Of a DNA stretch of 64,000 nt, positions 1-55,400 are shown piece by piece. Position 1 is the first letter of the stretch. The number at the start of each line of letters is the position of its first letter. A program made the position numbers and the translations under genes. The notes below the pieces were generated by a model. It was given only the letters and a program-made list of their open reading frames with translations. It ran no database searches and was not told where the DNA came from. The DNA is from Lytechinus pictus. Lineage: Eukaryota. Location: NCBI RefSeq assembly GCF_037042905.1, contig NC_087245.1, positions 34,038,001 to 34,102,000 of the forward strand, written 5' to 3'.

Positions 1-252
1 AGATAAAGAAAGGAAATTAACTTTCCGACGTTGTAACACATAGGAGGAAAGTGGAATTTCTTTTCGGTATCCAACGCAAGGTGTTCCTTTTGTGTTTCTT
101 ACGTAACTGCGTATTTCGAGTTTTCTCGTTGCGCTAACAAGCATATCTTTTCCATTCTCGGCTCAGCATTATTAGCTCGCGCACGTTTGGAAACCAGCTC
201 CAGATTTTCTCTACGAGCCCTGCTACCGTATTTTTTCCGTCAAGATAGCGGC

Positions 253-1038
253 ATGGACGTGGACGAGACCACGCCCGGCCCAGCCACGTCTCACAACATT
301 TTACAAGCCATCCAGGCTCTTCAACGAAAGGTGGACTCTGCCTCCCGGAAATCTGCCAAGCCCGAAAGCTCCCCCTCCTTCAAGAGTGAGGGAAACAAGC
401 AGCAATACGACCACGCCCAGAAAATTTTTCAGTGCATTGACGACGCTCTACATTCGCTGCAGGATATCGATATCGAGGCCGCAAAGGAGCGTCTACTCGA
501 GGCATCCGCCCTCCTTACTCAGAGGCAGAAACTGATTCGCCTGGCAGACCGCTCCCCTTTGGGCTGGGCCACAGTCAAAGAGTATATCGCAGACGACCTC
601 GCGGAGAATTCCGATGACGAAAAACGTCTCAGAAAGGTAATATGTTTTTAATTCCAGAATATTTTATTTTTAACAAAATATATCAAATTTTTCATACGAA
701 TTTTAGCAATACTTGACTGCGTTTTATACCACTGTGCATTTCTTCATGCATTGTTAATTTTTTCATATGCGATTTATTTTCAGGCGGAGAAGGCTGCAGC
801 CACCAAAAGGGCCGAAACAGCCAAAAAGTCGAAGATTCAGCCCCCCTTCCGGGCCCCCCGCTCTTCTGTACCTCCTCGCATTATGCCTGGGACTTTTCGT
901 CGCTTCAACCCCTACCGTTCTGAAACCCGCATCTGCTTCCAGTGTGGCATCTCCGGTCACGTCCGCCCCAACTGCCCCGCTCTGCGAGCCGCTAGAAGTG
1001 CCGTCAACCAGCAACAGCCATCCAAGGCCCCCTTCTAG
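253..1038 (+). CDS. gag: Gag-like protein, spliced join(253..636,784..1038), 212 aa
   Basis: Exon 1 ends ...LAENSDDEKRLRK at AAG|GTAAT (637); AT-rich intron ends TTTATTTTCAG (783); exon 2 continues in phase 0 with AEKAAA... and holds C-x2-C-x4-H-x4-C (CFQCGISGHVRPNC). Confidence 0.85.
637..783 (+). other. 147-nt GT-AG spliceosomal intron in gag
   Basis: GTAATA donor, pyrimidine-rich TTTTCAG acceptor, sharp drop in GC relative to both flanks, in-frame stop at 649-651 if retained, removal restores one continuous gag frame. Confidence 0.85.
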
Positions 1039-3040
1039 TGCCCCACCCGCCTCATCTCTCGACCCGCCTTCAGGCGTGCAAGGTAAATTGAGAAAATGTT
1101 TATCATTCTGGAAAAGTGAATTAAAAGCTTCCAAGTTTGTTTGCGATATTATCGAGTACGGTTATAAAATCCCTTTTGATAAAGTACCTCCCCCATTTTA
1201 TAGCAAGAATAACAAGTCCAGTTTGGATCACCCAGATTTTGTTGAAAGTGCCATCTCTGAATTGATACAAAACAGATGTGCAGTAGAAGTAAAGCAACGC
1301 CCTTATTGCTGTAACCCTCTAACCGTTGCCGAAGGCAAAAAATTACGCCTAGTTTTGGATTTACGTCACACAAATCAGTTCGTTGCACAATCTAAATTTA
1401 AATACGAAGATCTCACTCATATTGCGCAAGTGCTTGGTTCCGAGCAATTTTATTTCTCATTTGATTTAAAGTCCGGCTATCACCATGTCGACATATTTCC
1501 CCCCCACCAGCAATTTTTAGGGTTTTCTTGGACCCATTCTGATTCCGTAGTACGTTATTATGTATTCACTGTACTGCCTTTTGGGCTCAACAGCGCATGT
1601 TATTTGTTCACTAAATTGACAAGGCCACTAGTGTACCACTGGCGTTCACATGGTATAATTGCTTACATGTATATTGATGACGGCCTCATCATTTCACCGT
1701 CTTATGAATCCGCTTTAGCAAATTTGGCAGTAGTAAGGGAAACTATCCGGCGCAGCGGTTTCGTTCCCAATGAAGCAAAGTGTGCTTGGAACCCATCTAG
1801 TAGAATTCTTTACTTAGGATTCCTCATCGATTCACCATCACGCTCGATTTTTGTACCTCAGTCGAAACTAATAAACTTAGTTCAGAGCACTGACGAGCTT
1901 GTGTCATTTTCTAAGGCTGCTGCTCCTGTCCCAGTGAGAAAATTGGCCTCATTCGCCGGACACGTCATTTCAATGAATCTCGCTCTCGGTCCGGTGGCGA
2001 GATTGATGACGCGCGCAACTTATCGCGCAATCGAATCTCGGTCTTCATGGTCCGATTTGATTTTTATTTCCGAATCTGTGCTCAATGAACTGGCTTTTTG
2101 GTCTGCCAACATTTTTTCGCTTAATGGATTTGCATTTTCATATCGCCTTGTACCGACCATGCAAATATTTTCTGACGCCAGCGATCTTGGTTTTGGTGCT
2201 CATGTCCAAGATCATTCACACCTGCGCGTCCACAGTTTGTGGTCACCTTCTGAGAAACTTCAGAGTTCCACTTGGCGCGAATTGACCGCTGTTTATCGCT
2301 CACTCAAAGCATTTTCCAGCCATTGCTTTAACCAAAAAATCAAGTGGTTCTCTGATAATTCCAACGTGCCTCGAATCATTAACCATGGTAGTGTTAAGTC
2401 CGATCTTCATCGTATCGCGCTTGATATTTTCTCTTACTGTCAGTTGCACGATATTGTTATTTCACCGGAATGGTTACCCAGGAGAGAAAATATTTTAGCA
2501 GACAAGATCAGTAAATATCGCGATTATGACGACTGGTCTATCGACGATCATTCTTTCTCACAAGTAGACAACTTGTGGGGGCCACATACAGTCGATAGGT
2601 TTGCCTCCCCCCACAATGCCAAACTTCCCAATTTTAACGCAAGATTTTTTTGCCGGGGCGTTTCCGCCGTGGACGCATTTTGTCAAAATTGGGAATTTGA
2701 AAACAATTACCTCTGCCCGCCAGTATCGTTCATTATTCAAGTAATAAAGCGCATGGCTGCTTGTAGCGCTGTCGGCACGCTGATAGTTCCCCGTTGGCCT
2801 ACCTCCCATTTCTGGCCTTTCATTTGCCCCGACGGCATCCATTTTGATGCGCACATTCACGATTGGAGGATATTAAATGCTTCATTTACTCCCTCCTCCT
2901 TGCACAAAGACAAAGATGTGTTTTGCGAGCAACCGTCATTTTTTACCCTAGCATTACGATACGATTTTAAGCGCTCGCCTAGAACTTCAAACACCGGTTT
3001 TTGTTCTGCTGACTTGGGTTATTGCCCAAATTGTATTTGA
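767..3040 (+). CDS. pol: Pol: reverse transcriptase + RNase H + DNA N6-adenine methyltransferase-like domain (757 aa)
   Basis: RT motifs LRLVLDLR, FDLKSGYHH, VLPFGL, YIDD, YLGF; RNase H FSDAS, WRELTA, FSDN, NILADKIS; MT-like VDRFAS...NAKLPNFN...VDAFCQNW...NYLCPP; uninterrupted. Confidence 0.93.
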   Translation: MRFIFRRRRLQPPKGPKQPKSRRFSPPSGPPALLYLLALCLGLFVASTPTVLKPASASSVASPVTSAPTAPLCEPLEVPSTSNSHPRPPSSAPPASSLDPPSGVQGKLRKCLSFWKSELKASKFVCDIIEYGYKIPFDKVPPPFYSKNNKSSLDHPDFVESAISELIQNRCAVEVKQRPYCCNPLTVAEGKKLRLVLDLRHTNQFVAQSKFKYEDLTHIAQVLGSEQFYFSFDLKSGYHHVDIFPPHQQFLGFSWTHSDSVVRYYVFTVLPFGLNSACYLFTKLTRPLVYHWRSHGIIAYMYIDDGLIISPSYESALANLAVVRETIRRSGFVPNEAKCAWNPSSRILYLGFLIDSPSRSIFVPQSKLINLVQSTDELVSFSKAAAPVPVRKLASFAGHVISMNLALGPVARLMTRATYRAIESRSSWSDLIFISESVLNELAFWSANIFSLNGFAFSYRLVPTMQIFSDASDLGFGAHVQDHSHLRVHSLWSPSEKLQSSTWRELTAVYRSLKAFSSHCFNQKIKWFSDNSNVPRIINHGSVKSDLHRIALDIFSYCQLHDIVISPEWLPRRENILADKISKYRDYDDWSIDDHSFSQVDNLWGPHTVDRFASPHNAKLPNFNARFFCRGVSAVDAFCQNWEFENNYLCPPVSFIIQVIKRMAACSAVGTLIVPRWPTSHFWPFICPDGIHFDAHIHDWRILNASFTPSSLHKDKDVFCEQPSFFTLALRYDFKRSPRTSNTGFCSADLGYCPNCI

Positions 3041-3098
3041 AGCAAACGAGTCCTTATCATGATCAAGTACTCATATTACGATATTAGCTTTTTGCATT

Positions 3099-3293
3099 AT
3101 ACAGGCCGATTTGTGCGCCCTTCGTTCCTTTTGTACGATACAGGCCGATTTGCGGGCCAATAATATTATTTTGTTCTATCGAGGCTGATTTGCGTACCTA
3201 TCATTATCTCTATTTATTCTATCCAGGCCAATTTGCGTGCCTAGTCACCCCCCCCCCCCCCCGTTTTGTGATATACAGGCAGATTTGCATGCC
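3099..3293 (+). repeat. Array of five 21-bp motifs (consensus ATACAGGCCGATTTGCGTGCC) separated by dissimilar 18-31 bp spacers
   Basis: Units start at 3099, 3138, 3178, 3221, 3273. Confidence 0.85.
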
Positions 3294-3400
3294 TAGGTGA
3301 TGTGCAGCCCTTGCTTGCATTGTAATCACACCTTGCTTAGGTCAATTTAAGTTCCTGGCAACTTTTTACCCTGTTATGCCTTCTTTTGCGTTTCTCGATA

Positions 3401-3662
3401 GCTAATAATCATTGCCCAGCTCTGACCAAACATGTTCAATCTTTTGTCATTGTTGTTATTTTTCAGTATTTGTCACCTGAGGTAGATAAAGAAAGGAAAT
3501 TAACTTTCCGACGTTGTAACACATAGGAGGAAAGTGGAATTTCTTTTCGGTATCCAACGCAAGGTGTTCCTTTTGTGTTTCTTACGTAACTGCGTATTTC
3601 GAGTTTTCTCGTTGCGCTAACAAGCATATCTTTTCCATTCTCGGCTCAGCATTATTAGCTCG
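3401..3662 (+). repeat. Internal B-A split direct repeat of the YR element
   Basis: 3401-3533 recurs at the right end (5265-5401, differing in one T-run length); 3484-3662 recurs at 1-179. Confidence 0.95.
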
Positions 3663-4123
3663 ACTTCCCACCCCCCCCCCCTTTTTTTGTTCTTACGGCT
3701 TTTCCCTCACCCCCCCCCCCCCCCGCCCCTGGTCAAACTTGCATTACTTAGTATTCAGGAGCAAGGAGCAAGGGAGTGCGCCCTCGCTCGGTACCCTGGG
3801 ACGCAACCACGTTTCCTCCATGAACTAATATGGGGGTTTTTCGTGGCCTCCGAGTACTAGTGTCTCGTACACTAGTCAGGTACTGGGCGCCTTGCATCCT
3901 CCTTATTCGTTTCCTGTCGCATTGTTATTCTTTTGATTAAATCTAGGTCTTTTGGATACCTACTTTTGAAAAAGTACGTATTAAGCAGCTTTTGGTTCTA
4001 CTCATTACTTTGTTTCTTGAAATTTCTCACTCTGCTTACTGTACAGTATGTATGTCAGTCTTTCGACTGATTTCTTTTTATTAATTTTGTCTAATTTTCT
4101 TGCTCTCATGAGCTAACTTTCAG

Positions 4124-5115
4124 AAACATGGTCCGCCAAGCAAGACTCCATCTCCGATCCGCATCTACGCAGCCTAGCCGCTGATGTTCTTCCATCCCTA
4201 CTCATGTCTGCCAAAGCTTCATCTACCACATCAAAATACAAATCCCGTTGGGACAAATGGGTCCAGTGGGCGAGCTCCAAATCTCTACCCACATTTCCAG
4301 TCCAAGCGTACCACCTCTGTCTATACCTTTCCCATCTGTCTTCCGTTAGCGGGGCCAAGACTCTAGCAGATTCCCTCGTCGCGTCAGTGAAATGGGCGCA
4401 CAGTCTCGCAGGCCTTCCTTCACCCACAGATGACCCTATGGTAAAAACAGCAGTGCAGGGGTATAACCGGACTCACTCTTCCCCTGTTTGTCGTAAGGAG
4501 CCTGTTACACCAGAAATCCTGTCCCATCTTCGCGCATCACACGGTCAGCTCAATGCATCTTTAGCTGATCTACGCATTTTGTTTATATGCTTCATTTCTT
4601 ATGCTGGATTCCTACGCTTCGACGACCTTAGCAGGATAAGAAGGAAGGACTGCACTCTTCATCATGACAGGCTAGTCCTACACTTACCCTCTTCTAAAAC
4701 CGATCAATTCCGCCAAGGCAGAGATGTTACCATTGCTAGGACATCCAACCCGACCTGTCCCGTCATTATAGCCGAGCGATATTTCGCAGCTTTAGGCGAT
4801 CCTCCTCATTCTCACCTACCAGTGATTCGCAGGCTTGCTCGTTCCAAACGCGGTCTAGTCGCCACTTCTCACGGCCTAAGTTACACCAGAACTCGCGAGA
4901 TTGTCCTGGAGGCGTTGAAGCCCCTTGTTCCCGACGTCTCTAAGTTCGGTTTGCACAGTCTCCGGTCGGGTGGAGCTTCATCCGCTAGTAACAATCGAGT
5001 TTCTCCCTTTCTGATTTCACAACATGGTCGTTGGAAGTCAGACAAAGCCAGGGACACATACATAAAATCGGACGCAACGTCAAATCTTCTTCCTTCACAA
5101 TCCCTCGGGATTTAA
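4124..5115 (+). CDS. Tyrosine recombinase (first in-frame Met 4204; frame open from 4117, probable splice acceptor at 4123)
   Basis: Catalytic set R (FLRFDDL), K (SKTDQ), HxxR (HSLRSGG), H (HGRW), Y (RDTYIK); N-terminal core-binding region STTSKYKSRWDKW. Confidence 0.93.
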
Positions 5116-5240
5116 GCTTCAAATCCCAATCCTTTATCATTGTTGTCGAGTTAATTTTCTTGGCTGTGTTTTTGCTTATGCATACTTTGCAATGTTCATA
5201 TCATTCTGAACAAATATGAGTCTATTGAATAAACAGCGAG

Positions 5241-5401
5241 CTAATAATCATTGCCCAGCTCTGACTAATAATCATTGCCCAGCTCTGACCAAACATGTTC
5301 AATCTTTTGTCATTGTTGTTATTTTTTTTTTCAGTATTTGTCACCTGAGGTAGATAAAGAAAGGAAATTAACTTTCCGACGTTGTAACACATAGGAGGAA
5401 A
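5241..5401 (+). repeat. Right-terminal B repeat with a 24-bp tandem duplication at its start
   Basis: CTAATAATCATTGCCCAGCTCTGA at 5241-5264 and 5265-5288; identity to the internal repeat ends at ...ATAGGAGGAAA (5401). Confidence 0.92.
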
Positions 5402-5752
5402 ATAATATTGAAAAGGGTGAAAATAAACTCTTCCGATAATGTAACCAACATATAATATATAAATCGTTCAATAACGGAAGAGACGACTGATTTACGAGGC
5501 TATTACTTTTTGGAATTTACAAAGGGTTTTTTTACGTTGCTAAATTCCAAAATTATTCTAATGAACCATAACTGTGAAAAAACATTTGTTCGTTCGCTCG
5601 AAATGAGGTATTAGTGTTGGGAGTTGATATTACTTGTCCCATAATTCGGAGGAGAAGAATATTTATAACAATCTAACCCAGTGTAATTATCAAGCTTCTA
5701 ATTATTTGAATCCAGACTAATAGGCCTTCGTTTGAATTAAGCTGGAGTTCAG

Positions 5753-6032
5753 GGCCCGTCTCACAAAGAGTTACGATTGATCTGATCAACCTCAAGTCTA
5801 TATATGCAAATCCATCAATGTCATAATTTTTCCTCAGGAAATTTGAACAATGTCCTTTGTAAACAAAGATAAGCACACTGAATATCCAAAACAACTTTTT
5901 AATTCATGAATGGACATCATAATTTTTATCTAGAAAATGTGTTGAACAAACATGCTTTTAAGATGATGACATTGATGACTTTCCATAGTTATGGTTGATT
6001 GGAACAATCGTAAATCATTGTAAGACGGGGCC
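5753..6032. mobile_element. PIF/Harbinger-type MITE
   Basis: TIRs GGCCCGTCTCACAAAGAGTTACGATTG / AATCGTAAATCATTGTAAGACGGGGCC, CAG on both sides; second family copy at 60987-61258. Confidence 0.7.
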
Positions 6033-19400: not shown

Positions 19401-22400
19401 TTACTTTTGAAAAGTTAGTGAAAAAAAATTTGCGCAGAACTTTGAAATAGTTATGCGAATAAAAGTAGACCTTAATCATGAAGAACACGTGGAATTTAGC
19501 TATTAACATTGATTTGAAGATATCTTTTACCTTTTTAACTTGTTTCTTTGTCCAAAACACTTCGAAGAGTGCGTTGCGCCCCACCCCACTTCCCCACACA
19601 CCGAGGCCATCGTGACGATATTTGCTTTACTGAGTGGAACAAGATATGTATGAGGAAGGTTAGAAAATATTGAATTACACTAATCTAGGTGACAGGAAAC
19701 GAATGCATGTGTTACCCCCTGTTCAGACTGTCCCCCGTCACCCGGGAAAAACCCCGGGGAATCCCCCGGTACCCGGGACATCCCCGGAAAATCAACAGTC
19801 TGGACGGTCTGGAGGATTGTCCCCCGTCTCCCGGTTCTATCCCCCGGGTTTTTCGAAGGAAGAGCCAAGGATTACCTTGGCTCGTAATCCGAGATCGCGC
19901 ACCTGTTTTAATCATAAGTGCGCATGCGCGAAATGCGGTGTAAAGAGAACTGCTTCCGCTCAGTACTGTGCTAGTGCCATAGAGATATTAGTATACATCT
20001 ATATGGCTAGTGCTCGGCCAGCTGCAAGTAATTGCATTTCCCGCGCTATCATGTGCGGGCGCGCCTTACGTAACCATGCCGATGACCTAGCCCACTCATC
20101 CCCCGGTGCAAATCTCCCGGGCACCGGGGGATGTATGGACGGTCGGTCGTCTCCCCCTTCCCCCGGGTGACGGTCTGAACAGTCTGAACGGCCTGCTACT
20201 TTGGCAGTTGTGGGTCGGTCAAGTAGTTTCCTAATCCTTCCAATTTTAAAAATACCATATGTCGTAGACCTGCAAATTTGCTTGATATAATCTTGAAGTG
20301 TAAGATTGTTGTCAATCATTACAACAAGGTCACGTTCACACTCACTGCCTTTCAGGGAAACATTATCAGTAGATAAGTCAGGGAATGGAGTAGTGAATTT
20401 TGAGGATATGTGTATAATCTCAGATTTCGTTCATTAAGGCAGAGTTTGTTATTCTCAGACCAAATTTTAATGTCTTCAAGGCAGCTATGGAGTTTTGGGG
20501 CTGCTTCAGCCTTCACATTGGGTTTTAGAGCAACATAAATTTGTGTGTCGTCAGCGTACATTACATGCTAAACACCTTGGTGAGAATCTATGAGTTTGGA
20601 CAGTCGACTGGTATAAAGAATAAAAAGGAGTGGGCCGACTACGGAACCATGCGGAACGCCGCAAGGGGAATGATTCAGAAAGCGTATCATTAATAATGAC
20701 TTGTTGGGACTGACAATGAAGATATAAGTGGATCCATTCCAAGACAGTTCCAGTGATGGAGAATTCGCCTTCTGAAGGCGATTGAGTAGCAGACTGTGAT
20801 CAATAGTAATAATAATAATTTATAATAGCTGGATTTATAAAGTGCTTTTTGCCTGAGGATACAAAGCGCTGCTATTATTACCCCGGCTTTAGCTCGAGCT
20901 ACCATCACCGGCGCTCAGTGCATGCAAGGAATTACTCCTGCCGGGTACCAATTTACCTCACCTGGGTCGAGTGCAGCACAGTGTGGATAAATTTCTTGCT
21001 GAAGGAAAACACGCCATGGCTAGGATTCTAACTCACGACCCTCTGTTTCAAAGGCGAGAGTCAGAACCACTAGACCACGACGACCCCACAAGACCACGAC
21101 GCCCCCTTAGTGTTAAAAGCGGCTGTGTAGTCAAAAAGGACCAATGTTATTTCGTCGCCCTTGTCCACAGTCAGCAGAAAATCGTTGAAAAGTTTGACCA
21201 ACGCAGTCTCTGTCGCATCTGCTGGGAGTTTTGGCGCTTGCTAAAAAAAATAGGAACTGTTTCACAAATTTCAATGTCTTCAAACAGTGCTTGGAATCAC
21301 AATTCAGTTCAAAAATTGTCCTAGTAGTATTACGGTAATGTTTTTCTTGCAATGATGTTGGAGTAGAAAGAGAAAGGTCTTCAGGTAAGACTTAAAGGTA
21401 GATAGTTGGCTTCTGCTGAGATAAGAGCTATGTAGGTTAGAGATTTATCGTTCAGTGCGTTAAATACGAGAACGCCAAGTTTATAGGCAATTCTCCATTG
21501 CCTTTGATCTGTCTTAAACTGACCTCAGTTTGAGATGAGTTGGCGGTAGATCTGTGTATCATATCTGTGTATCATATCATATCAATGGTACTGGGTTCCA
21601 TGACTCTCGATGATGTGAGATATTGGTGAAGTGTACATATAAATGCAGAACAACTGCGGGCCGAAGACAGAGCCTTGAGGAACACCATACTTCGGCGTTG
21701 ATCTGGCACGTCAACAGAAACATAGCACATCCTTTCTGTCAGGTATGATCGGAACCACTGTGGTGCAACTCCTCTGATTCCATATTGGTCACTAAGTCGA
21801 TAGTGAAGAAAGTCAGGGTCCGCAGTGTCGAAGGCTGCTGAATGATCCAATAGGACTAGGAGAGATATCTTAGTTTGATCCATGACAGACAGGAGATCAC
21901 TATGGACAGCTGTCTCGACACTATGTTTGGCACGATAGGCGGACTGAAATGTATCATGAAGAGAATTATCTGTGATGTAGGAACTCAGCTGGTTCATCAC
22001 GACGCGTTCGAGTGTCTTGCTCAAGAAGTTGAGGGTGGAGATCGGACGATCGTTGCTCATGGATCAAGTTTCGACATCTTCAGCACTGGATGAACTTGAG
22101 CAACTTTCAAAACTTCTGAGACTTCTCCAGATTGTAGAGAGTGTAATGATTGATGTCACAAAAGTGATCAAAGGTTGAAGAAGAACAGGATTTGGGGATT
22201 ACAGTAGGGACCGGATCAAGATCACATGATTTGGGTGTTGAAGACTCTACAATGAGTCGTATCTCATCCTCTTTAAAAACCGACAAGTTACTAGGAGGTG
22301 ACGGTGCTCCAACAGAGGGAAGGCTTAGGCCGGGGGGCTGAAGTCATCAGCATTCTGGCATCTTTGGCGGATCTTCGAAATCTTTTCATCAAAGAATTTA

Positions 22401-25400
22401 CAATTTTTTTTGGATAGCTGTTCCTATGACTATTGCTGTTTGAGAGGAGACTAATTGCTCTTGGGGTGAAGGACTTTATCAGCAGTACTGAAGAACCATC
22501 TCTGGTCTTTTTCATGTTCAGTGAAGAGGTAATTGTAGAATGACCTAATTGACGAACGAATCAATTGAACTTCTGCTTCTGAGATGGATACATCTGCCAA
22601 TGAATCTCAAGTTCAGCGTTTCTCCACAAGCGACGTCTTTTCTGCATTGCAATATGAATGCTGCTCTTAAACCACGAGGTATGGAGTCTCAGTACCACTG
22701 TAGGTATCTTCGTTGGGGCGTGATTATTGAAATATTTTCAATGATGGTGTCAGGGGGCCAGACATTGGGCTATATTTTTGACAAGTTGCGAGCGAGGGAA
22801 GCAAGCATGAAAATATATTTTCTTATACGAAAATCTGAAATTTCTGATCGATTGCCTTATTTCACCCTCTCCCATTTCCTGTTCTTTCTTCTTCTTTTCT
22901 TTGTAATTTTTTGGGGGGTGGGGGCATAGCCCCCAAGGCCGCTCCCCCCCCCCCCCCCTCTGCATCTAGTGTTTGATGGAGACCCATTGAAACCATATGC
23001 TGATTTTGGTGCTCACAGCTTTTTGAAACATTACTTCCTGCCGCCCAGTACACATTTCTTCTGTTTCAAAGGCCGGTAAGCCACTAGACTACATTATGCA
23101 CCAACCTGCCCCATGAGATGTTGAAACAGTATTATTTTCGATGGGCAGCGACGGAATGCATTGGACAAGATCATATGTATGGACAGTACACACTTTCGTA
23201 CTGTTGTCAATTACAATGAGGTCAACGCCGTGCTATGCCATCCGGAGAAGCTACACCAGATGCCTTCATTCTGCCAACCCATGTGTCATGATCTTCCTGG
23301 GGCCCGTTGCAGAAAGAGTTGCAATCAATCGCAACTATAAAAATCATGCGAACTTGACACACCCATGATAATTTTTTTCTGGGGTGGGGGAAAAAGTTAA
23401 TGCTATACGAAAGTAGTTTTCAAGGCAATTCTTAATTTTCCTTCAATTTACAGGCCCAGCTGTGACGTACCTATATCAGCGACTCCATGGGACCAAACGA
23501 AGATATCTTGTGGTGGCAGGTGCATTGTTCGCAACGGGAGGACTCCTTCTCGTATCAACAGTTAATAATGCTTTTCAGTTAGCTCTCTGCCTTTCGGCTG
23601 CCGGTATGTTTACTATGCTTAATAAAATGGTGTATAATTTACCACAATCTAATCCGCGCTATCAATGTCTAGAAGCATGGGAATAATATTTATAAGATAA
23701 TAATATTTTAAGACTACACCTTTGAATGTCTCACGGCGGGCGAGCGCGGTATTTACACCCTTTCAGAATTTGCTTCTTTGGTGTTAGGTCAAAGTATTTT
23801 TCATCTGTTTTTCTCTTCTTTTTTTGCGCCCCGAAGTTGTGACCCATATCACGTGATCAATTATAAACAATGCCATACGATGCGAACCATAGAGCGCAAT
23901 GATAATAAATGGCGTAACTCAAACTTCTATGATCAAATTGATCTTCTGAAGCGAGGCTATGTAAACTGACTGTGGCAAGAGACATAACTTGTTCAATCAT
24001 TTTGGGGGCGGATAATAATAATTATATTGGATATCTTTATTTCGTGGAAAACCAGACATATTCCACTCGATAGGACTTTGATTCGTAAAATATTAACTCT
24101 CGCTTTCTAAATATCTCTGGTATTCTATTCTGAGTTTAGGCTAGTTGTCTCATTGTGTGTGTATTTTTTGGCAGGTCTAGGTTCCAACATCCTGTCAATT
24201 TCTATGGTAATAAACCTGAGCAACCAGTCTGGCGATGACTTTGGAATCTTCTACGGCATTGGTACATCAGGATATGCCTTCGGCATGGCCCTTGTGCCAC
24301 TGCTGGCTGATTACCTGAGGGACATCTATGGTTGGAGGGGTTCCTTGATGATCATTGGAGGTATCATGGTGCATCTGATACCACTGACCTTGATAGTGGA
24401 CTTCAAGGAAGTGAACGACGGAATGATTGATCATGAAATCCCACATAGCCATGATCGGAGGACGGACGAGCTCTTGGATACAAACGGCGAAGAAGCGACG
24501 TGTGGAGATTCGAGATATCAGACAGCATCGCGTCGTCAATTGGATAGGGAGCCAGCAAACAACGTTTGTAACAACGTTCGGCCAATAAGTGATAAAAGTC
24601 GAGATGGAAGCACGAGCTACAAGCAGGAAGACATCAACGAAGAGGCACACGAGGAAACATCTATGATGCTGGAATCCACTTCTGTACAGCAGATTATTTC
24701 AATAGGTGATAAGTCGGGGGCCGGTCTCCACGTCATTGGTCGAATAGATTGTTCCAAATTGTACGTTGCCGGATGCCAAATCTTTACCGACTCTATTTAC
24801 AATCAGGATCGTTGGATGATCCTTCTAATGCTAGTTGCCATGGTGTACGCCATAATGAACGGTGGCTGGTACTCCTTTCTCATCCCACGCGCGGTGGCAC
24901 TAGGTATTCCTACCTCAAAGGCATTGTGTATAGCTTACTCGGCGGCCACCGCAGCCTTTATAGGACGCTGCTTCAGCGGATTACTTTTGACAAATAAACG
25001 ATTATCAGGGCAATTCTTGTTTCTTTTCCTGACTTTTCTCAACATAACGTCACTTCTTGTGGATATCTGTGTCCCTAGTTTTGCGATAAAGATCGTGACT
25101 TCTTTTACAACGTCACTCACGATTGCCGAGAGGAACATTCTGGTATTGTTCATTTGCAAGGATCGGGCTCCCCACTCCCAGTTTCCGGTCATACTTGCTT
25201 CTTATGAGATTGTGTATGGGGTAGGAACTTTCCTCGGATCTTACTTATGTGGTAAGATATCCCTCTCGTATTCTTTACATCGATATTTAAGAAATGAATG
25301 GATATCGTCGTATGCTTTCGCATACATTAGATACAGGAAAAGAACTCCATGACACAAATAACAATATATGGGGCCATACCAAAACGTAAGAAACAACACG

Positions 25401-36880: not shown

Positions 36881-37237
36881 CAATTCGGTGCCCGGGCCCT
36901 ATGTCGGATATCAATTCGGCGCCCCCTATGATCGTACTTCATATCGGCACCCCTATGTCTAACTTTAATTCGGCGCGCCTAATTCGATCGAACATCAATT
37001 CAGTGCCCCCTATGTCAAACATCGATTCGGCGCCCCTAAATAAAACTTCAATTCGGCACCCCTATGTCGAACATCCATTCGGCGCCCCCTATGTCTAACA
37101 TCCATTCGTCGCTCCTTGGTAAAACATCAATTCGGCGCCCTCGACCCCCCCCCCCCCCGGTTGAACATAAATTTGGCGCTTCTATGTCGAACATCAATTC
37201 GGCGCCCCCTCAGTGTCAAACATGGATTCGGCGCTCC
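36881..37237. repeat. About 27-bp minisatellite (consensus CCTATGTCGAACATCAATTCGGCGCCC), about 13 degenerate units
   Basis: Recurrent TTCGGCGCCC core at about 27-bp spacing; lies inside a MITE-like unit at about 36587-37427. Confidence 0.85.
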
Positions 37238-49456: not shown

Positions 49457-52400
49457 TTAGAAAATATTTATTCAGGATAAAAAGATCAGCTAAATTGCTG
49501 TTTTACATCAATGTCCTGATTTAACAGGGATAAAAAACATATAAAGTTACAATAATATCATGATGCAAAATACATATAAATATTTAAACTTAGCTACTAA
49601 AATATGATTAAAAAATACTGTAAATAATTATGTTAAGACATTGAAAAAATGAGATTACATAGCTACTGAAATATGATAACAAAATACTGTAAATAATTAT
49701 ATTATGACATAAAAAAATGGAATTCAGTTCGAACTAGTTAAGTAATCACGGCAAGATAATCTGATAACATCACCCCAACCTTTCACAATGATGCTTCATA
49801 TGATAAGTATTAGAGGAGAATGAAACCCTTAGAACAAAAATAGCCCGTGTGAAATCAGAAAAATCAAAGAAACAGACCAACGAAAGCCCGAGAAAAATCG
49901 GACAAACAATGAGAAGGCCACGAGCACCCGAACAATGCGATCACCAACGCTACGGAGACCCCCACACCGGCAACGCAACAAAGATGTGCGATGCCACCTG
50001 CGAACAACTCTCCCCTGGGCCGGCATCTCACAGTCCATTAAAGGGAAAGCTGTTAACATGCGACACCACACATCCCCGTCGCACCGCCAATGGGAGGATC
50101 CCCACAGCAACAGTGATCGCAACATTCAAACGCCCACAACCGTCCCACCGCCCGTCCGACCCCTCCCAAACCCTCGCCGATCTGCCTCCTCGACCCCTCC
50201 GCCTCGACACCAGCCTACCTATTCCAAAGATTTCACTACCCTTTAACATTGGAAGAGCTTTTTATACATTCTCTTGAAGGAGTTAATTGAAGGTAGATTT
50301 TGAAGAAAATGTAAATTATTCCAGATTTTTTATCCTGAAAATAAAAAAGACCTCTTAAAACATTCCAAATTCGGTTTGGGTGGTAAAACATTGAGTGTAT
50401 CACAATTTCTAGTTCTTATGTCATGCCTATCAACTACCAACTCAATGTTATTACATAATCTGATAGGAGCCATTCCATGTATACACTTAAACATAATATT
50501 GGCTAAAAAATAATCACGTCTTTGCTCAATAGTAGGCCATTTGAGTTCCTTCATGAGATCTTCACCACGGCTGTTAACATAATCAAAATTACCTGTAACG
50601 TAGCGTGCTGCTCTTTTTTGTAATCGTGTTAAGTGATCTAGTTCCCTTTTACCAATATAATTTCCCCAAACAGAAATGGCATAATCTAAAGTTGGCAAAA
50701 CATTTGTCATATAAAGAGTGTTAAGGAGGGATTTATTCAAAAATTGTCTCAGTTTACCGAGTGAAAATATCTTGTAGGCTAATGTTTTGGATATATGATT
50801 AACGTGCGAACTCCAATTCAAATTTTCATCAATTTCAACACCGAGGTATCTAATAAATTTCACCTGTTCTACCAAATTATTATCAATAAAAATATTAATC
50901 TTATCGCATGAATAAGACCTATTTCTCAACAGCATTACCTTTGTCTTACTGACGTTTATACTTAAGTGGTTTTTATCATACCATTTTTTAACATTGTCGA
51001 TATTCTTTTGCATTTTTAAAGTAACTTCATTGACATCGGAACCATAATCATAAATTACCACGTCATCAGCAAAAATATTACATTCACCACTGTTGAGACA
51101 AGTAGAAATATCATTAATTATTAAGAGAAAAAGAGCCGGGCCAAGCCCACTCCCTTGCGGAATTCCGATATCTACATCTTTATATGATGACATTTCACCA
51201 TGGCAACAGACCATTTGCTTTCTGTTACTTAAATAACATTCAAACCATTTCAATGAAGTACGAGTAATGCCGTATTTTTCTAATTTGAATAGTAATAGCT
51301 TGTGATCGATTGAATCGAAGCATTTAGAAATGTCAAGGAAGCATGCCCCGACAACTTCACGTTCATTGAATGCCCCATACCAATCGTCAATAACTCTATG
51401 TAAGGAGGTGACAGTTGAGTGGTTAGGAATGAAAGCAAACTGATCAATATTGATAAGATCAAACTTTTGTAAATAAGCGAGAAGTTGTTTTTGAACAGTT
51501 TTTTCAATTAATTTGGAAATATGACAAACGACTGAAATTGGTCTATAGTTTGACTTATCTGATTTTGATCCTTTACCCTTATATATAGGTGTTGTTCTTG
51601 ACTTTTTCCAGTCGTCCGGGATTATACCTGACAATAAACTTAAATTGAAAATTTGACTTAGTGAATTATAAATAAGAGGTGCAGCTAAACGTAGAAGTTT
51701 AGAATCAAAATTCATAACATCTAGGTTACTTGTGGATGACAGACTCAGGAGCAGTTTTAACACTTCATCAGGTTTAGCATGCTCAAAATCAAATTCATAT
51801 ATACACTGTGGTTGGTTCCAGTTAATATCCTTTTCTTTGTAATTAAAATTTTTGCCTACATTAATAAAATAATCATTCATTGTGTTACAGTCTAATTCAG
51901 CTGGAACATCATTTTTGCTTTTTGTATTTCCAGTCATCAAAGTAAGTTCATTCCATAATTTCTTTGGATCATGTTTATATTTAGTGGAAATCTCGGAAAA
52001 GTATTGACGTTTAGATTTTCTTATTAATTTAGTAATTTGATTTCTTACAATACGATATTCTTTAATATGATGAAGATTATCTACCGCTTTGGATTTACAA
52101 TATTTTCTTTTCAAGAAATCACGCCGGTACATAAGATCAATAATTTCACCAGTTATCCACGGAGAGTAACGTTCTTTAACTCTGATAACTTTAAGGGGAG
52201 CATGTTTATGACATATATCAAGGAAAATATTTTTCCAACTCTTCCATACGGTATTTATGTCATCGTTGCACGAAAAATTATCATTGCATATTGAACTTTT
52301 GGATAAATCATCAAGAAATAACTTTTGGTCAAATTTTTTATAATTTCTGAAATGCACTGTTTTATGGCTAGTAGACTCATTACTAAAATTAAGACATGTA

Positions 52401-55400
52401 TAAGTCAAGTAGTGGTCGCTGAGAGAAATCGGTGCAACATTTGTTATTAAATGATCATTAGGATTAGTTGAAAAAATATGGTCAATACATTTGGATGTTG
52501 TCAGAGTTACCCTTGTGGGTTTATTTACCAGTTGAGTTAGAAGAAAAAGGTTCTCCATGTCATCAATATTTTTTTTCCCACTACATTTGGTATCAAAATA
52601 ATCAATATTAATATCACCAAGTATACACAATCTTTTATTGTCAATTGATGCCAATTCTAAGACATTGAATAAATGATCAAAGAATTCGGACTGAGAATTT
52701 GGAGGTCTACATGTATATAAGCAGCTTATAATCAAACTTTCGTGTTTTAATTTTAATTCTATCCATAATGCTTCTAGGGAATCATGCTCTAAATCATGCC
52801 GTCGACAGAAAGATAAAGTACTACGAATATACATACATACTCCACCTCCACGTTTACTACTTCTATCTAATCTTAATAAACTGTAATTATCGATATTAAT
52901 CATACCATCTTTTATTGCATTGCTCAACCACGTTTCGGATATACATAAGATATCAAGTTCTAGTTTTTTTAATAGAAAGCTAATTTCATCAAGTTTACCA
53001 AAAATACTTCGAACATTCATATGGGCAATTTTAAGACTATTATATTTCCGAAGAATATCAGCATGAATTTCATAAGCACAGTTATTTGATTGATAACTAT
53101 CAGTTGAAAAACTATCATCATGACGTGAAACATTGATGGCAACATACTTTGGTATAGGAAATCCACTTCCACAAACAAAATGTGGTACATGTATTTCATT
53201 TGGTACAACGGGCCACGAGTTGTACGTAAAGTGATCCATAACTGACAAAGTTCTTTATGAAACACGAACCAGGGAATATTTGAGATGGGCTGAAGCTATT
53301 TGAAATGACCGGCAGTTCGGTCCTGGGTCAAGTTGTGACTCAAATCATGATATTTCAGCATAACTCAATACTATGCATGGTTTCTAACTTTAATAGAAAA
53401 TTTTTATATTGGAACTGCAGTACTGGTGTCCACCAAACAGGGTTGGGCTCAATTACTTTCTTCAATTAGAATTACAATTATGTAATTGAAGAAATTTTCA
53501 ATTACAATTACTTTTCAATTTAAATTACATTTTTTTCAATGACAATTACCAATTACTTTTGTCAAAAATTTCAATTACTTTAGAAAGTCATAAATGAAAT
53601 CAATTTGTATTCTGTATATACTAGCACCACCTTTTTCAACATAATTCTAAGTTACATAGAAACTGACATAATGAAGGTTTATGTTAAAAGAGCACAGATT
53701 CTGCCTACAATCTTTGATGCTGAAGCAGTTGACATGAAAAAGTCATGAAATTTATAAATCATGAATCAGTTAAGTTTATTGTAAATGTAATTAATTACGT
53801 AATTGATCAATTACCTAGACTAGTAATCGAGCCCAACCCTGCCACCAAATGTCATTTAGCAGACCCCAGTAGCATAGTTGCAATATTCTAAATGACCTCT
53901 GACCTTGATCATCTGACCTGAAACTCTTCTTTTTTTTTGTTGTACAGAGATGTAGAGCTCCAAAGAAGTTCATGTATTGTTTTACCGGAGGGACACACAA
54001 CGAGACGTGGCATTGTGAGAACTACTTCCAAACAATCAGAGACTATATATGGAAAGTAAGTACATCACCATCATATCAATTGTCTTATTATGGTTTCATT
54101 GATGGTTTGCATAGTCTCTATTGCATCTTTGATATATGATTAAATTCAAGTTATTCCATATCCCTTTAAAATTGAAATTACATATCAAAATAGTATCAAT
54201 TATATTCAAGTCAATTACCATAATACCGGTATAAGTACTTGTTTTACAAAAACTAGTAATGATATGCCAAGGTGACCCATTAAATTTTATTTTTGAGATA
54301 ATTTTCTCATTACCTGCATCATATGATGAACATTGGGGGTTTTCATGCTGCTTTTTTTTTGTATTTTATGAGTTTATTGTAAGAATTATATTTTATTTGA
54401 ATCTATTTTAATTTCAAATCTGGGTATATGTTCACTAAAATGCTTTGGCTTGTATTCTGAATTCTTGTTTATCATACATTCATAGTTGTGGTTAAATTAT
54501 GGTAAGCCAAATGTGACACAAGGCTCCATTGTTGTAGTGCTGTAGCCGAACTGCCGAACCGAATGGAAGCTCGCCGAACTTGGCACTTCCGAACCGAACC
54601 GAACGCAAAGGCCTGGTTCGGTAGTTCGGTAAAAAAAAAAAGGCACAGTAATATAGCTAATTAAAATGCATAATAGCGGGGACACGTACGTGCAGTCGCC
54701 GCTGGCTAACGTCAGCTTAATGGACGACGCCATACTGCAAGATTTGGCCCGCGCCCTCACTGGCTAACGCTCGAACGCCATTCATCCATACACTAATTCC
54801 TCTTGATTACCGTTGATAAAAACCTCGTTCAAATCTTTTCCAGAATTCCTATGAATTAGCGATGGATGTTTTTCCGTTAATCAAATATCCTTTATTATAC
54901 CAATATTTTTTTTTTATTTATAACATTTTTATTTTAATCACAATTTCAGTCCGAACGCGGGTCTGTTTTTGTTAACCCACGTTGTTTGTGCATGCCCACG
55001 TATGGCCTTACGCGTATTGAAAGGAATGATGTTGGGTCGAAAAACAGAATTGTTGTTAATCAAACTTATTGTTTGTTCCGTGTTTGTTGGGGATGAAACT
55101 ATGATGGCGACCAGTCACGTTTGACTGTACCGCCAGATAGTTAAGATTAATTAATTAAGGTCAAGGTGAGATAAGAGAAATGAGCAAGGGGCTTTGTGGT
55201 GGGGGGGGGGAGGGAGAGAGAGAGAGAGAGAGGGGGGAGTTAAGAGGGCGAGTGGGGGGGGGGGGGAGTTAAGAGGGCCGAGTGGGGATACAGTTTCATC
55301 ATGCAGTACAGGGCGTCGATGAACACCTTATTTTTTTTCTCCAAAATATGGAAAGTGACAGAATAATCAGAAAAGGTTGATTGGTTCTGATTTTGAAAAA

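Follow-up and report, generated by a model that had tools for sequence, protein, structure and literature searches.

A young Pat1-like retrotransposon of the sea urchin Lytechinus pictus appears to decode one transcript by splicing

Positions 1–5401 of a 64-kb stretch of the Lytechinus pictus genome (contig NC_087245.1; the whole stretch is called the window here) are filled by a retrotransposon with the layout [B tail]-A1-gag-pol(RT/RH/MT)-B1A2-YR-B2, where A and B are repeats and RT, RH, MT and YR stand for reverse transcriptase, RNase H, methyltransferase and tyrosine recombinase. All features of the element described below lie on the + strand. We consider it likely that the element represents a young Pat1-like YR retrotransposon family in which one transcript, starting at A1, is decoded by splicing. 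Introns at 637–783 and 1083–4112 are spliced, and gene models and conservation support a choice between two acceptors of the second intron – 4124, which would fuse the first 107 Pol residues to YR, and 4113, which would leave a Gag message. The superfamily and the layout are known, and the splicing scheme with its fusion of Pol leader and YR is the part worth attention. It addresses how DIRS-order elements express a recombinase reading frame that has no start codon, and it touches on the priming of reverse transcription and the rebuilding of split repeats – questions that are open or little tested.

Two introns and a start codon embedded in gag

The gag gene begins at ATG 253 in a first exon (253–636), is interrupted by a 147-nt GT..AG intron (intron 1, 637–783) and continues in a second exon (784–1038) that encodes a CCHC zinc knuckle and ends in the stop codon. 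Compared with three RefSeq proteins, spliced Gag matched 212/212, 211/212 and 211/212 residues; the knuckle scored below the cut-off for zf-CCHC (E 0.0017), and its motif is visible in the perfectly matching protein, P0218. In sequencing run X1, the joint 636–784 had a depth of 28.1, compared to 12.9 for the intron-retaining contig.

Within the DDE codons of Gag lies ATG 614 (614–636), which opens the +1 frame common to Pol and YR and encodes the N-terminus of the RefSeq 437-aa YR isoforms. If intron 1 is retained, Gag ends after 132 aa and the frame from ATG 614 after 8 aa; removing the intron completes both. Positions 256–612 contain no ATG, where synonymous recoding would predict 4.25 (P 0.003); this ATG-free stretch fits leaky scanning to ATG 614. 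An internal methionine before the DDE motif is absent in eight of nine close Gag relatives, and P0007 and P0011, both relatives of Pol, start at the ATG that corresponds to this embedded one. At the intron 1 site, the reading from DNA breaks off at the same residue in four of 13 close Gag relatives.

Intron 2 (1083–4123) has its donor after 1082 and acceptors at 4112 and 4123, giving lengths of 3,030 or 3,041 nt. It contains the RT, RNase H and MT domains, a five-copy array, the B1A2 repeat and a hairpin. We observed a GT..AG joint 1082–4113 in X1 that skips pol and B1A2, at a depth of 45.3, compared to 15.9 and 17.5 for intron-retaining contigs. Splicing to 4113 puts YR out of frame and yields a product equal to RefSeq isoform X3 (127/128 residues). 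Use of the acceptor at 4124, 11 nt further on, places the first 107 residues of Pol in front of YR in a 437-aa protein, which three RefSeq isoforms designated X1 match at 437/437, 434/437 and 434/437 residues. Contig depth in run X1 – a poor measure of expression level – was 59 over the YR exon, 15.9 over the pol intron and 17.5 over the spacer between A2 and YR.

The initial annotation of this sequence, made from its letters alone, had reported that all three frames are open. They are open as exons, but gag is split by intron 1, the conserved pol start at ATG 614 needs the splice, and upstream of 4204 no ATG in the YR frame is usable. The RNA-level control layer that the annotation also postulated is borne out.

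The recombinase exon (4124–5115) lies in a frame open from 4117 to 5115 and carries R-K-H-R-H-Y motifs. YR is Cre-like by profile and predicted fold: its profile finds Cre (E 5e-19), and the structure model (pLDDT 94) aligns with Tre/Cre at a TM score of 0.71. The window protein has no Pfam match of its own, and PF00589 matched 49 of 66 aligned YR relatives. An ESM Atlas search added broad taxa only. RefSeq lists copies of this family as host genes, labelled ‘uncharacterized’ or ‘xerD homolog’.

Gene models of other echinoderms show the same junction. Among 20 echinoderm models in which the N-terminus is extended by more than 15 aa, 13 join YR exactly behind a G-V-[KQ] motif of the Pol leader; such joins were found in Lytechinus, Asterias amurensis, A. 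rubens and Amphiura, thus in a sea urchin, sea stars and a brittle star. We also compared the two junction residues of plain-reading-frame contig proteins with those expected from a phase-1 YAG acceptor. This test examined 106 proteins, of which 39 were usable (long enough and with the anchor tryptophan). The expected residue pair precedes YR in 12/12 close and 24/27 distant usable relatives, and the upstream residue in the close set is always S, T or A (CAG), against a background of 15%. Read-through sequence upstream of YR is rich in F, L, C, Y and I (49%, compared to 25% in the core). The leader that Pol and YR share contains a hydrophobic run in all three echinoderm classes (e.g., around residues 35–50 of P0269; also P0278 and P0413), which could be a membrane anchor or just the +1 reading of gag.

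Pol itself is open from stop to stop over 758–3040. Its second exon (784–3040; spliced Pol 759 aa) encodes a Pro/Ser-rich leader, RT with a YIDD motif, RNase H, a Dam-like MT and a Cys-rich tail. Pfam matches were obtained for RT (PF00078, E 6.9e-18) and RNase H (E 8e-4). The Dam-like MT fell below the Pfam cut-off in the window protein (E about 0.002–0.0027), and Dam matched in 15 of 20 aligned Pol relatives (best E 5.4e-8). Catalytic motifs are present in RT, RNase H, MT and YR alike.

Two further observations concern Pol. Its C-terminus (2983–3037) carries, behind the MT, a Cys-rich tail (G-F-C...C-x-x-C) common to many relatives: of 195 relatives that reach the MT end, cluster members included, 97 show C-x(1-8)-C-x-x-C within their final 40 residues. 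The tail is a possible metal-binding module. Single Gag-Pol fusions make up 26 of 116 pol relatives (P0028, P0029, P0057, P0086 and others) and group together in the tree, so gag-pol coupling varies between lineages.

Several points weigh against the proposal that one transcript is decoded in this way. X1 is a single run that is only guessed to be RNA, and the in-frame joint 1082–4124 is not among the 15 of 17 joints that were listed; the 4124 fusion comes from automatic gene models whose RNA support was not seen. Two raw RNA runs, X14 and X15, of which about 6% each was read, show almost no depth on the element; their apparent joints lie only between poly-C runs and are artefacts, and at this near-zero depth there are no pile-ups of starts or ends. 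A DNA-like run, X9, has patchy low depth over the element and no joints. Seven of the 20 echinoderm models join YR differently. Nine of the 13 close Gag relatives read through the intron 1 site, among them three gene models and at least one relative whose contig is 18 kb long; intron 1 is thus lineage-limited. Offsets for the acceptor test were fixed only once the sequences had been viewed, and these are not independent of one another but related, which makes its P values too favourable. The Pol mRNA would still keep B1A2, which leaves the retention of intron 1 in genomic copies unexplained. Finally, the YR and pol trees described below hold database hits only, with no named PAT references.

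Alternative routes to the recombinase

The competing explanation that survives best, though we regard it as unlikely, treats the 4124 acceptor as noise: the working YR would be a 303-aa form translated from Met 4204 by re-initiation on the abundant 4113-spliced Gag message. Of the two acceptors, only 4113 appears among the joints listed for X1, and 303-aa YR forms are annotated (P0392 and P0286). However, Met 4204 is not conserved (e.g., P0272, P0276 and P0284), whereas the 27 residues before it are conserved and form two confident helices in the structure model, so a start at Met 4204 would leave YR without its first two helices. The in-frame acceptor, moreover, is the conserved one.

The initial annotation had read A2 as a second promoter that makes YR its own transcription unit, and this we now consider very improbable. 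A2 is identical to A1, and a promoter inside A – as a start at 51 would imply – could fire from A2 too; three Asterias models have other N-termini, some of them from sequence just upstream of YR. Against this, a 3-kb splice connects the 5′ exons to YR, the joint from 1082 having a depth of 45.3, compared to 17.5 for the A2–YR spacer, which is close to the 15.9 of the pol intron. Unspliced RNA from A2 would also present seven ATGs before Met 4204; three of these are in the YR frame, and each runs into a stop codon before it. A conserved acceptor signature stands upstream of YR. Minor initiation at A2 may occur.

Repeat layout and left end

The window begins on a B-A junction. Positions 1–179 are identical to 3484–3662 (179/179), 3402–3533 equals 5265–5401 except for a T-run that is 5 nt longer in B2, and a perfect 24-bp duplication lies within 5241–5289. 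No further copy of A or B occurs anywhere in the 64-kb window. Because B ends at 3533 and at 5401, positions 1–50 are the last 50 nt of a B repeat (identical to 3484–3533 and 5352–5401), which is not part of a normal left end, and A begins at 51. The repeats are then A1 (51–179, 129 nt), the probable 5′ end of element and transcript; B1 (3400–3533, 134 nt); A2 (3534–3662); and B2 (5239–5401), with the right end at 5401, the 24-nt duplication at its start (5241–5264 and 5265–5288) and the longer T-run. The repeats, their identities, the T-run and the duplication had all been recorded correctly in the initial annotation; what it called the 5′ repeat is a B tail followed by A1.

Position 51 is the likely left end, since X1 contig 1 (51–637) starts exactly there and the RefSeq model P0389 implies that, at a second locus, A is preceded by some other letter. 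The flank left of the element is outside the window, and the only junction visible is the right one, at 5401/5402. The B tail at 1–50 comes from a tandem neighbour, a self-inserted neighbour or assembly collapse. On balance we favour collapse as the explanation for 1–50, but not for the gene structure.

Host, age and kinship

Spliced Gag and the YR fusion are each identical to a Lytechinus pictus RefSeq protein. The Gag and YR clusters contain seven RefSeq locus ids on four chromosome-size contigs, and the copies compared differ by 0–3 residues (434–437/437 and 211–212/212). X1 differs from the window by 10 substitutions over 4,865 covered nt and has a premature stop in its pol contig, at 2937, near the end of pol. 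The ratio of observed to expected CpG is 0.97 in the element, compared to 0.74 in the rest of the window. The family is thus very young, as first proposed, and has been recently active; for this single copy the perfect repeats may partly reflect assembly collapse, and the stop in X1 tells against carrying the claim of an intact, active element over to it.

It is very improbable that the window copy is an assembly composite (1–50, the perfect repeats, possibly the duplication) whose splicing is incidental processing by the host, within a largely dead family. In favour are the B-A junction on which the window starts, five N gaps (148–570 nt) in the scaffold, and X1, which lacks the duplication and carries the nonsense variant. 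Against it, near-identical proteins are encoded at the seven loci on four contigs, the splice sites are conserved across echinoderm classes, and in a sister family B2 starts with a duplication of its own.

In a quick IQ-TREE analysis of YR (109 of 120 hits, short unnamed ones dropped), all 10 named echinoderm sequences – from sea urchins, sea stars and a brittle star – fell in one 33-row clade with SH-aLRT support of 99. In a FastTree analysis of pol (116 of 120 hits plus the window sequence), the 15 closest rows formed one clade with support of 100. Relatives from Strongylocentrotus purpuratus are present among the matches (P0225 and P0298).

A proposed scheme of expression and replication

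We reasoned that the two introns and the placement of the repeats could be joined in one scheme. All three proteins would come from one start point, with the recombinase joined to the front of Pol and needing no promoter of its own. Ribosomes would reach ATG 614 by leaky scanning, and Pol would be made from RNA from which intron 1 has been removed and in which intron 2 is kept. B1A2 would serve as the template that rebuilds the circle junction, carried only by RNA retaining intron 2; because B1A2 lies inside that intron, the spliced Gag and YR messages presumably cannot be copied into new elements.

A putative poly(A) signal, AATAAA (5228–5233), stands just upstream of B2 and none stands before B1. 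RNA therefore probably ends a short way into B2, perhaps 20–30 nt behind the signal. B would then be restored from B1, an untrimmed overlap would yield the 24-nt duplication, and the Cre-like YR would integrate the product. The first 24-mer of the duplication ends 31 nt behind AATAAA, and the duplication is absent from X1 contig 5. In the sister family, a conserved B follows YR (26 of 48 read-through residues, E 1e-12); N-K read-through matching AATAAA stands before B in P0426 and P0429, and an 11-codon duplication occupies the same place in P0429, not in P0426. The 24-nt duplication may be a replication scar, for which two events are suggestive.

Repeat ends, hairpins and the array offer further candidate signals. 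A 13-nt segment at the inner end of A1 (168–180) is complementary to 5236–5248 at the start of B2; it is the longest complementary run, reached in 0/300 shuffles. A bulged hairpin crosses the B-A junction (3486–3550; –23.8 kcal/mol, z –5.8, 0/200 shuffles), with the junction itself (3533/3534) in the 3′ arm, and it folds as DNA too. We dropped a loxP-like reading of the inverted repeat at the junction because the junction is off-centre by about 14 nt, inside one arm. Intron 2 also contains a stable branched RNA structure (3752–3905; –65.5 kcal/mol, z –4.1, 0/200 shuffles) with the lowest z of 214 windows scanned.

The five-copy array found by repeat search (3090–3293) has a unit of about 21–30 nt at a spacing of 39–52 nt; with up to 5 mismatches allowed, neither strand of the window holds it anywhere else. 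Among 13 read-through tails of at least 15 aa from relatives, it fits well in P0015 (18/21 nt, 3/200 shuffles), is borderline in P0012 (17/200 shuffles) and does not fit in the other 11. The P0015 peptide also resembles an MT motif, and conservation of the array is only a lead. An Rfam scan gave three chance matches, none near threshold, and thus no known ribozyme or structured RNA. Searches for related DNA gave one irrelevant weak locus from 31 candidates in metagenomes and 0/72 in viruses. The array and the 3752–3905 structure are candidate packaging or export signals.

These elements can be combined in a broader reading that we put forward tentatively and think will probably not hold in full: that the PAT layout is itself a splicing-based quality filter. 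With B1A2, the array and the hairpin placed in a 3-kb intron, only intron-retaining RNA would be packaged and circularised, and the choice between acceptors 11 nt apart would dose recombinase against Gag. The scheme would be old and common to PAT-like elements of many marine invertebrates, and the 24-nt duplication would record a strand transfer from poly(A)-truncated B2 to B1. By analogy with attC sites and integron integrases, the junction hairpin might be read as a folded single strand by the RT or the recombinase.

Comparison with known elements

By published criteria, not by tree, the element is a member of the PAT superfamily, Pat1-like and with the nematode-form layout, in a sea urchin. 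It has split direct repeats A1-B1-A2-B2 (the left flank being outside the window), RT with RNase H and MT, a YR on the same strand and no DDE integrase, and a CCHC zinc finger in Gag. B1A2 (3400–3662) lies between the end of pol at 3040 and YR from 4124, which is the nematode form. No long inverted repeat of the DIRS1-like kind was found in the element, where the longest end-to-end complementarity is 13 nt. The PAT-type class first assigned to this DNA is borne out by the split direct repeats, MT, CCHC Gag and same-strand YR, as is the argument that the Dam-like MT in Pol sets it apart from Ngaro. Its supposedly special ‘two-cassette’ layout, on the other hand, had already been published for nematode-form Pat1 and Kangaroo (PMC4157794).

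The available portion of PMC4157794 places internal repeats between MT and YR in Kangaroo and nematode-form Pat1, reports the latter from nematodes only, describes a different placement in the echinoderm-form SpPat1, and gives Ngaro as having no MT and internal repeats downstream of YR. Going by that portion, the element shares with nematode-form Pat1 (PAT of Panagrellus redivivus and CbPat1) the order A1-B1-A2-B2, MT, CCHC Gag, same-strand YR and repeat placement; it differs in its echinoderm host and in splice-dependent expression, which the same portion does not mention. SpPat1 of Strongylocentrotus purpuratus, compared by the text description in that source only, has in common with it the sea-urchin host, MT, CCHC Gag and split direct repeats, whereas the echinoderm-form repeat placement is not that of the present element. 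The placement of internal repeats between MT and YR is shared with Kangaroo of Volvox carteri, which, as described there, differs in its inverted YR and lack of a zinc finger. Ngaro likewise has split direct repeats and YR, but lacks MT and carries its internal repeats 3′ of YR.

DIRS-1 of Dictyostelium carries its joined ends a second time as an internal copy, which templates the circle junction – the part that B1A2 would play here – but the termini are inverted and paired with an internal complementary region (ICR), whereas the repeats here are split and direct. According to the consulted part of PMC7192593, the ICR is required for DIRS-1 transposition, its primer is unknown and the specificity of its YR is untested.

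A literature search turned up no description of PAT or DIRS elements that express YR in a splice-dependent way, the founding PAT, Kangaroo and SpPat1 papers and the Repbase reports being outside its reach. The term ‘intron’ is absent from the accessible text of PMC6681497, PMC9210276, PMC2685390, PMC3266345 and PMC3783388, and ‘splic’ from that of PMC8547959. What was available of PMC13465315, PMC9940879, PMC5890265 and bioRxiv 10.64898/2026.05.21.726589 has no bearing on splice-dependent YR. ‘SymbioDIRS’ was rejected as a precedent, as these elements are described, in the text at hand, as intronless.

Parallels to the proposed division of RNAs are found among long terminal repeat (LTR) elements. 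Splicing separates messages from copied RNA in copia, Ogre and foamy-virus pol, and BARE, another LTR element, is said to keep separate RNA pools. The likeness is that splicing divides messages from copied RNA. These elements use a DDE integrase, in contrast to the present one, in which splicing appears to be required for all three proteins and integration would fall to an enzyme that borrows the N-terminus of Pol.

The nematode-form layout is thus shown to occur in a sea urchin, and the family offers exact testable coordinates in a sea urchin used in the laboratory: those of two introns, of a switch between two acceptors, of the start codon embedded in gag, of a candidate poly(A) site, of a duplication scar that recurs and of the hairpin at the junction.

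Neighbouring features in the window

Beyond the element, a foldback element resembling a miniature inverted-repeat transposable element lies at 5752–6032, 350 nt beyond B2, with inverted arms of 40 and 39 nt; its very high depth and many loose ends mark it as a high-copy repeat. Three features were judged by eye: an open 974-aa frame at 50330–53254 (–) that reads like a non-LTR endonuclease-reverse transcriptase, fragments of another non-LTR reverse transcriptase at 19999–22063 (–), and a 413-aa open frame at 24111–25352 (+) that resembles a multi-pass transporter exon. An array of about nine 26-nt units occupies 36897–37140.

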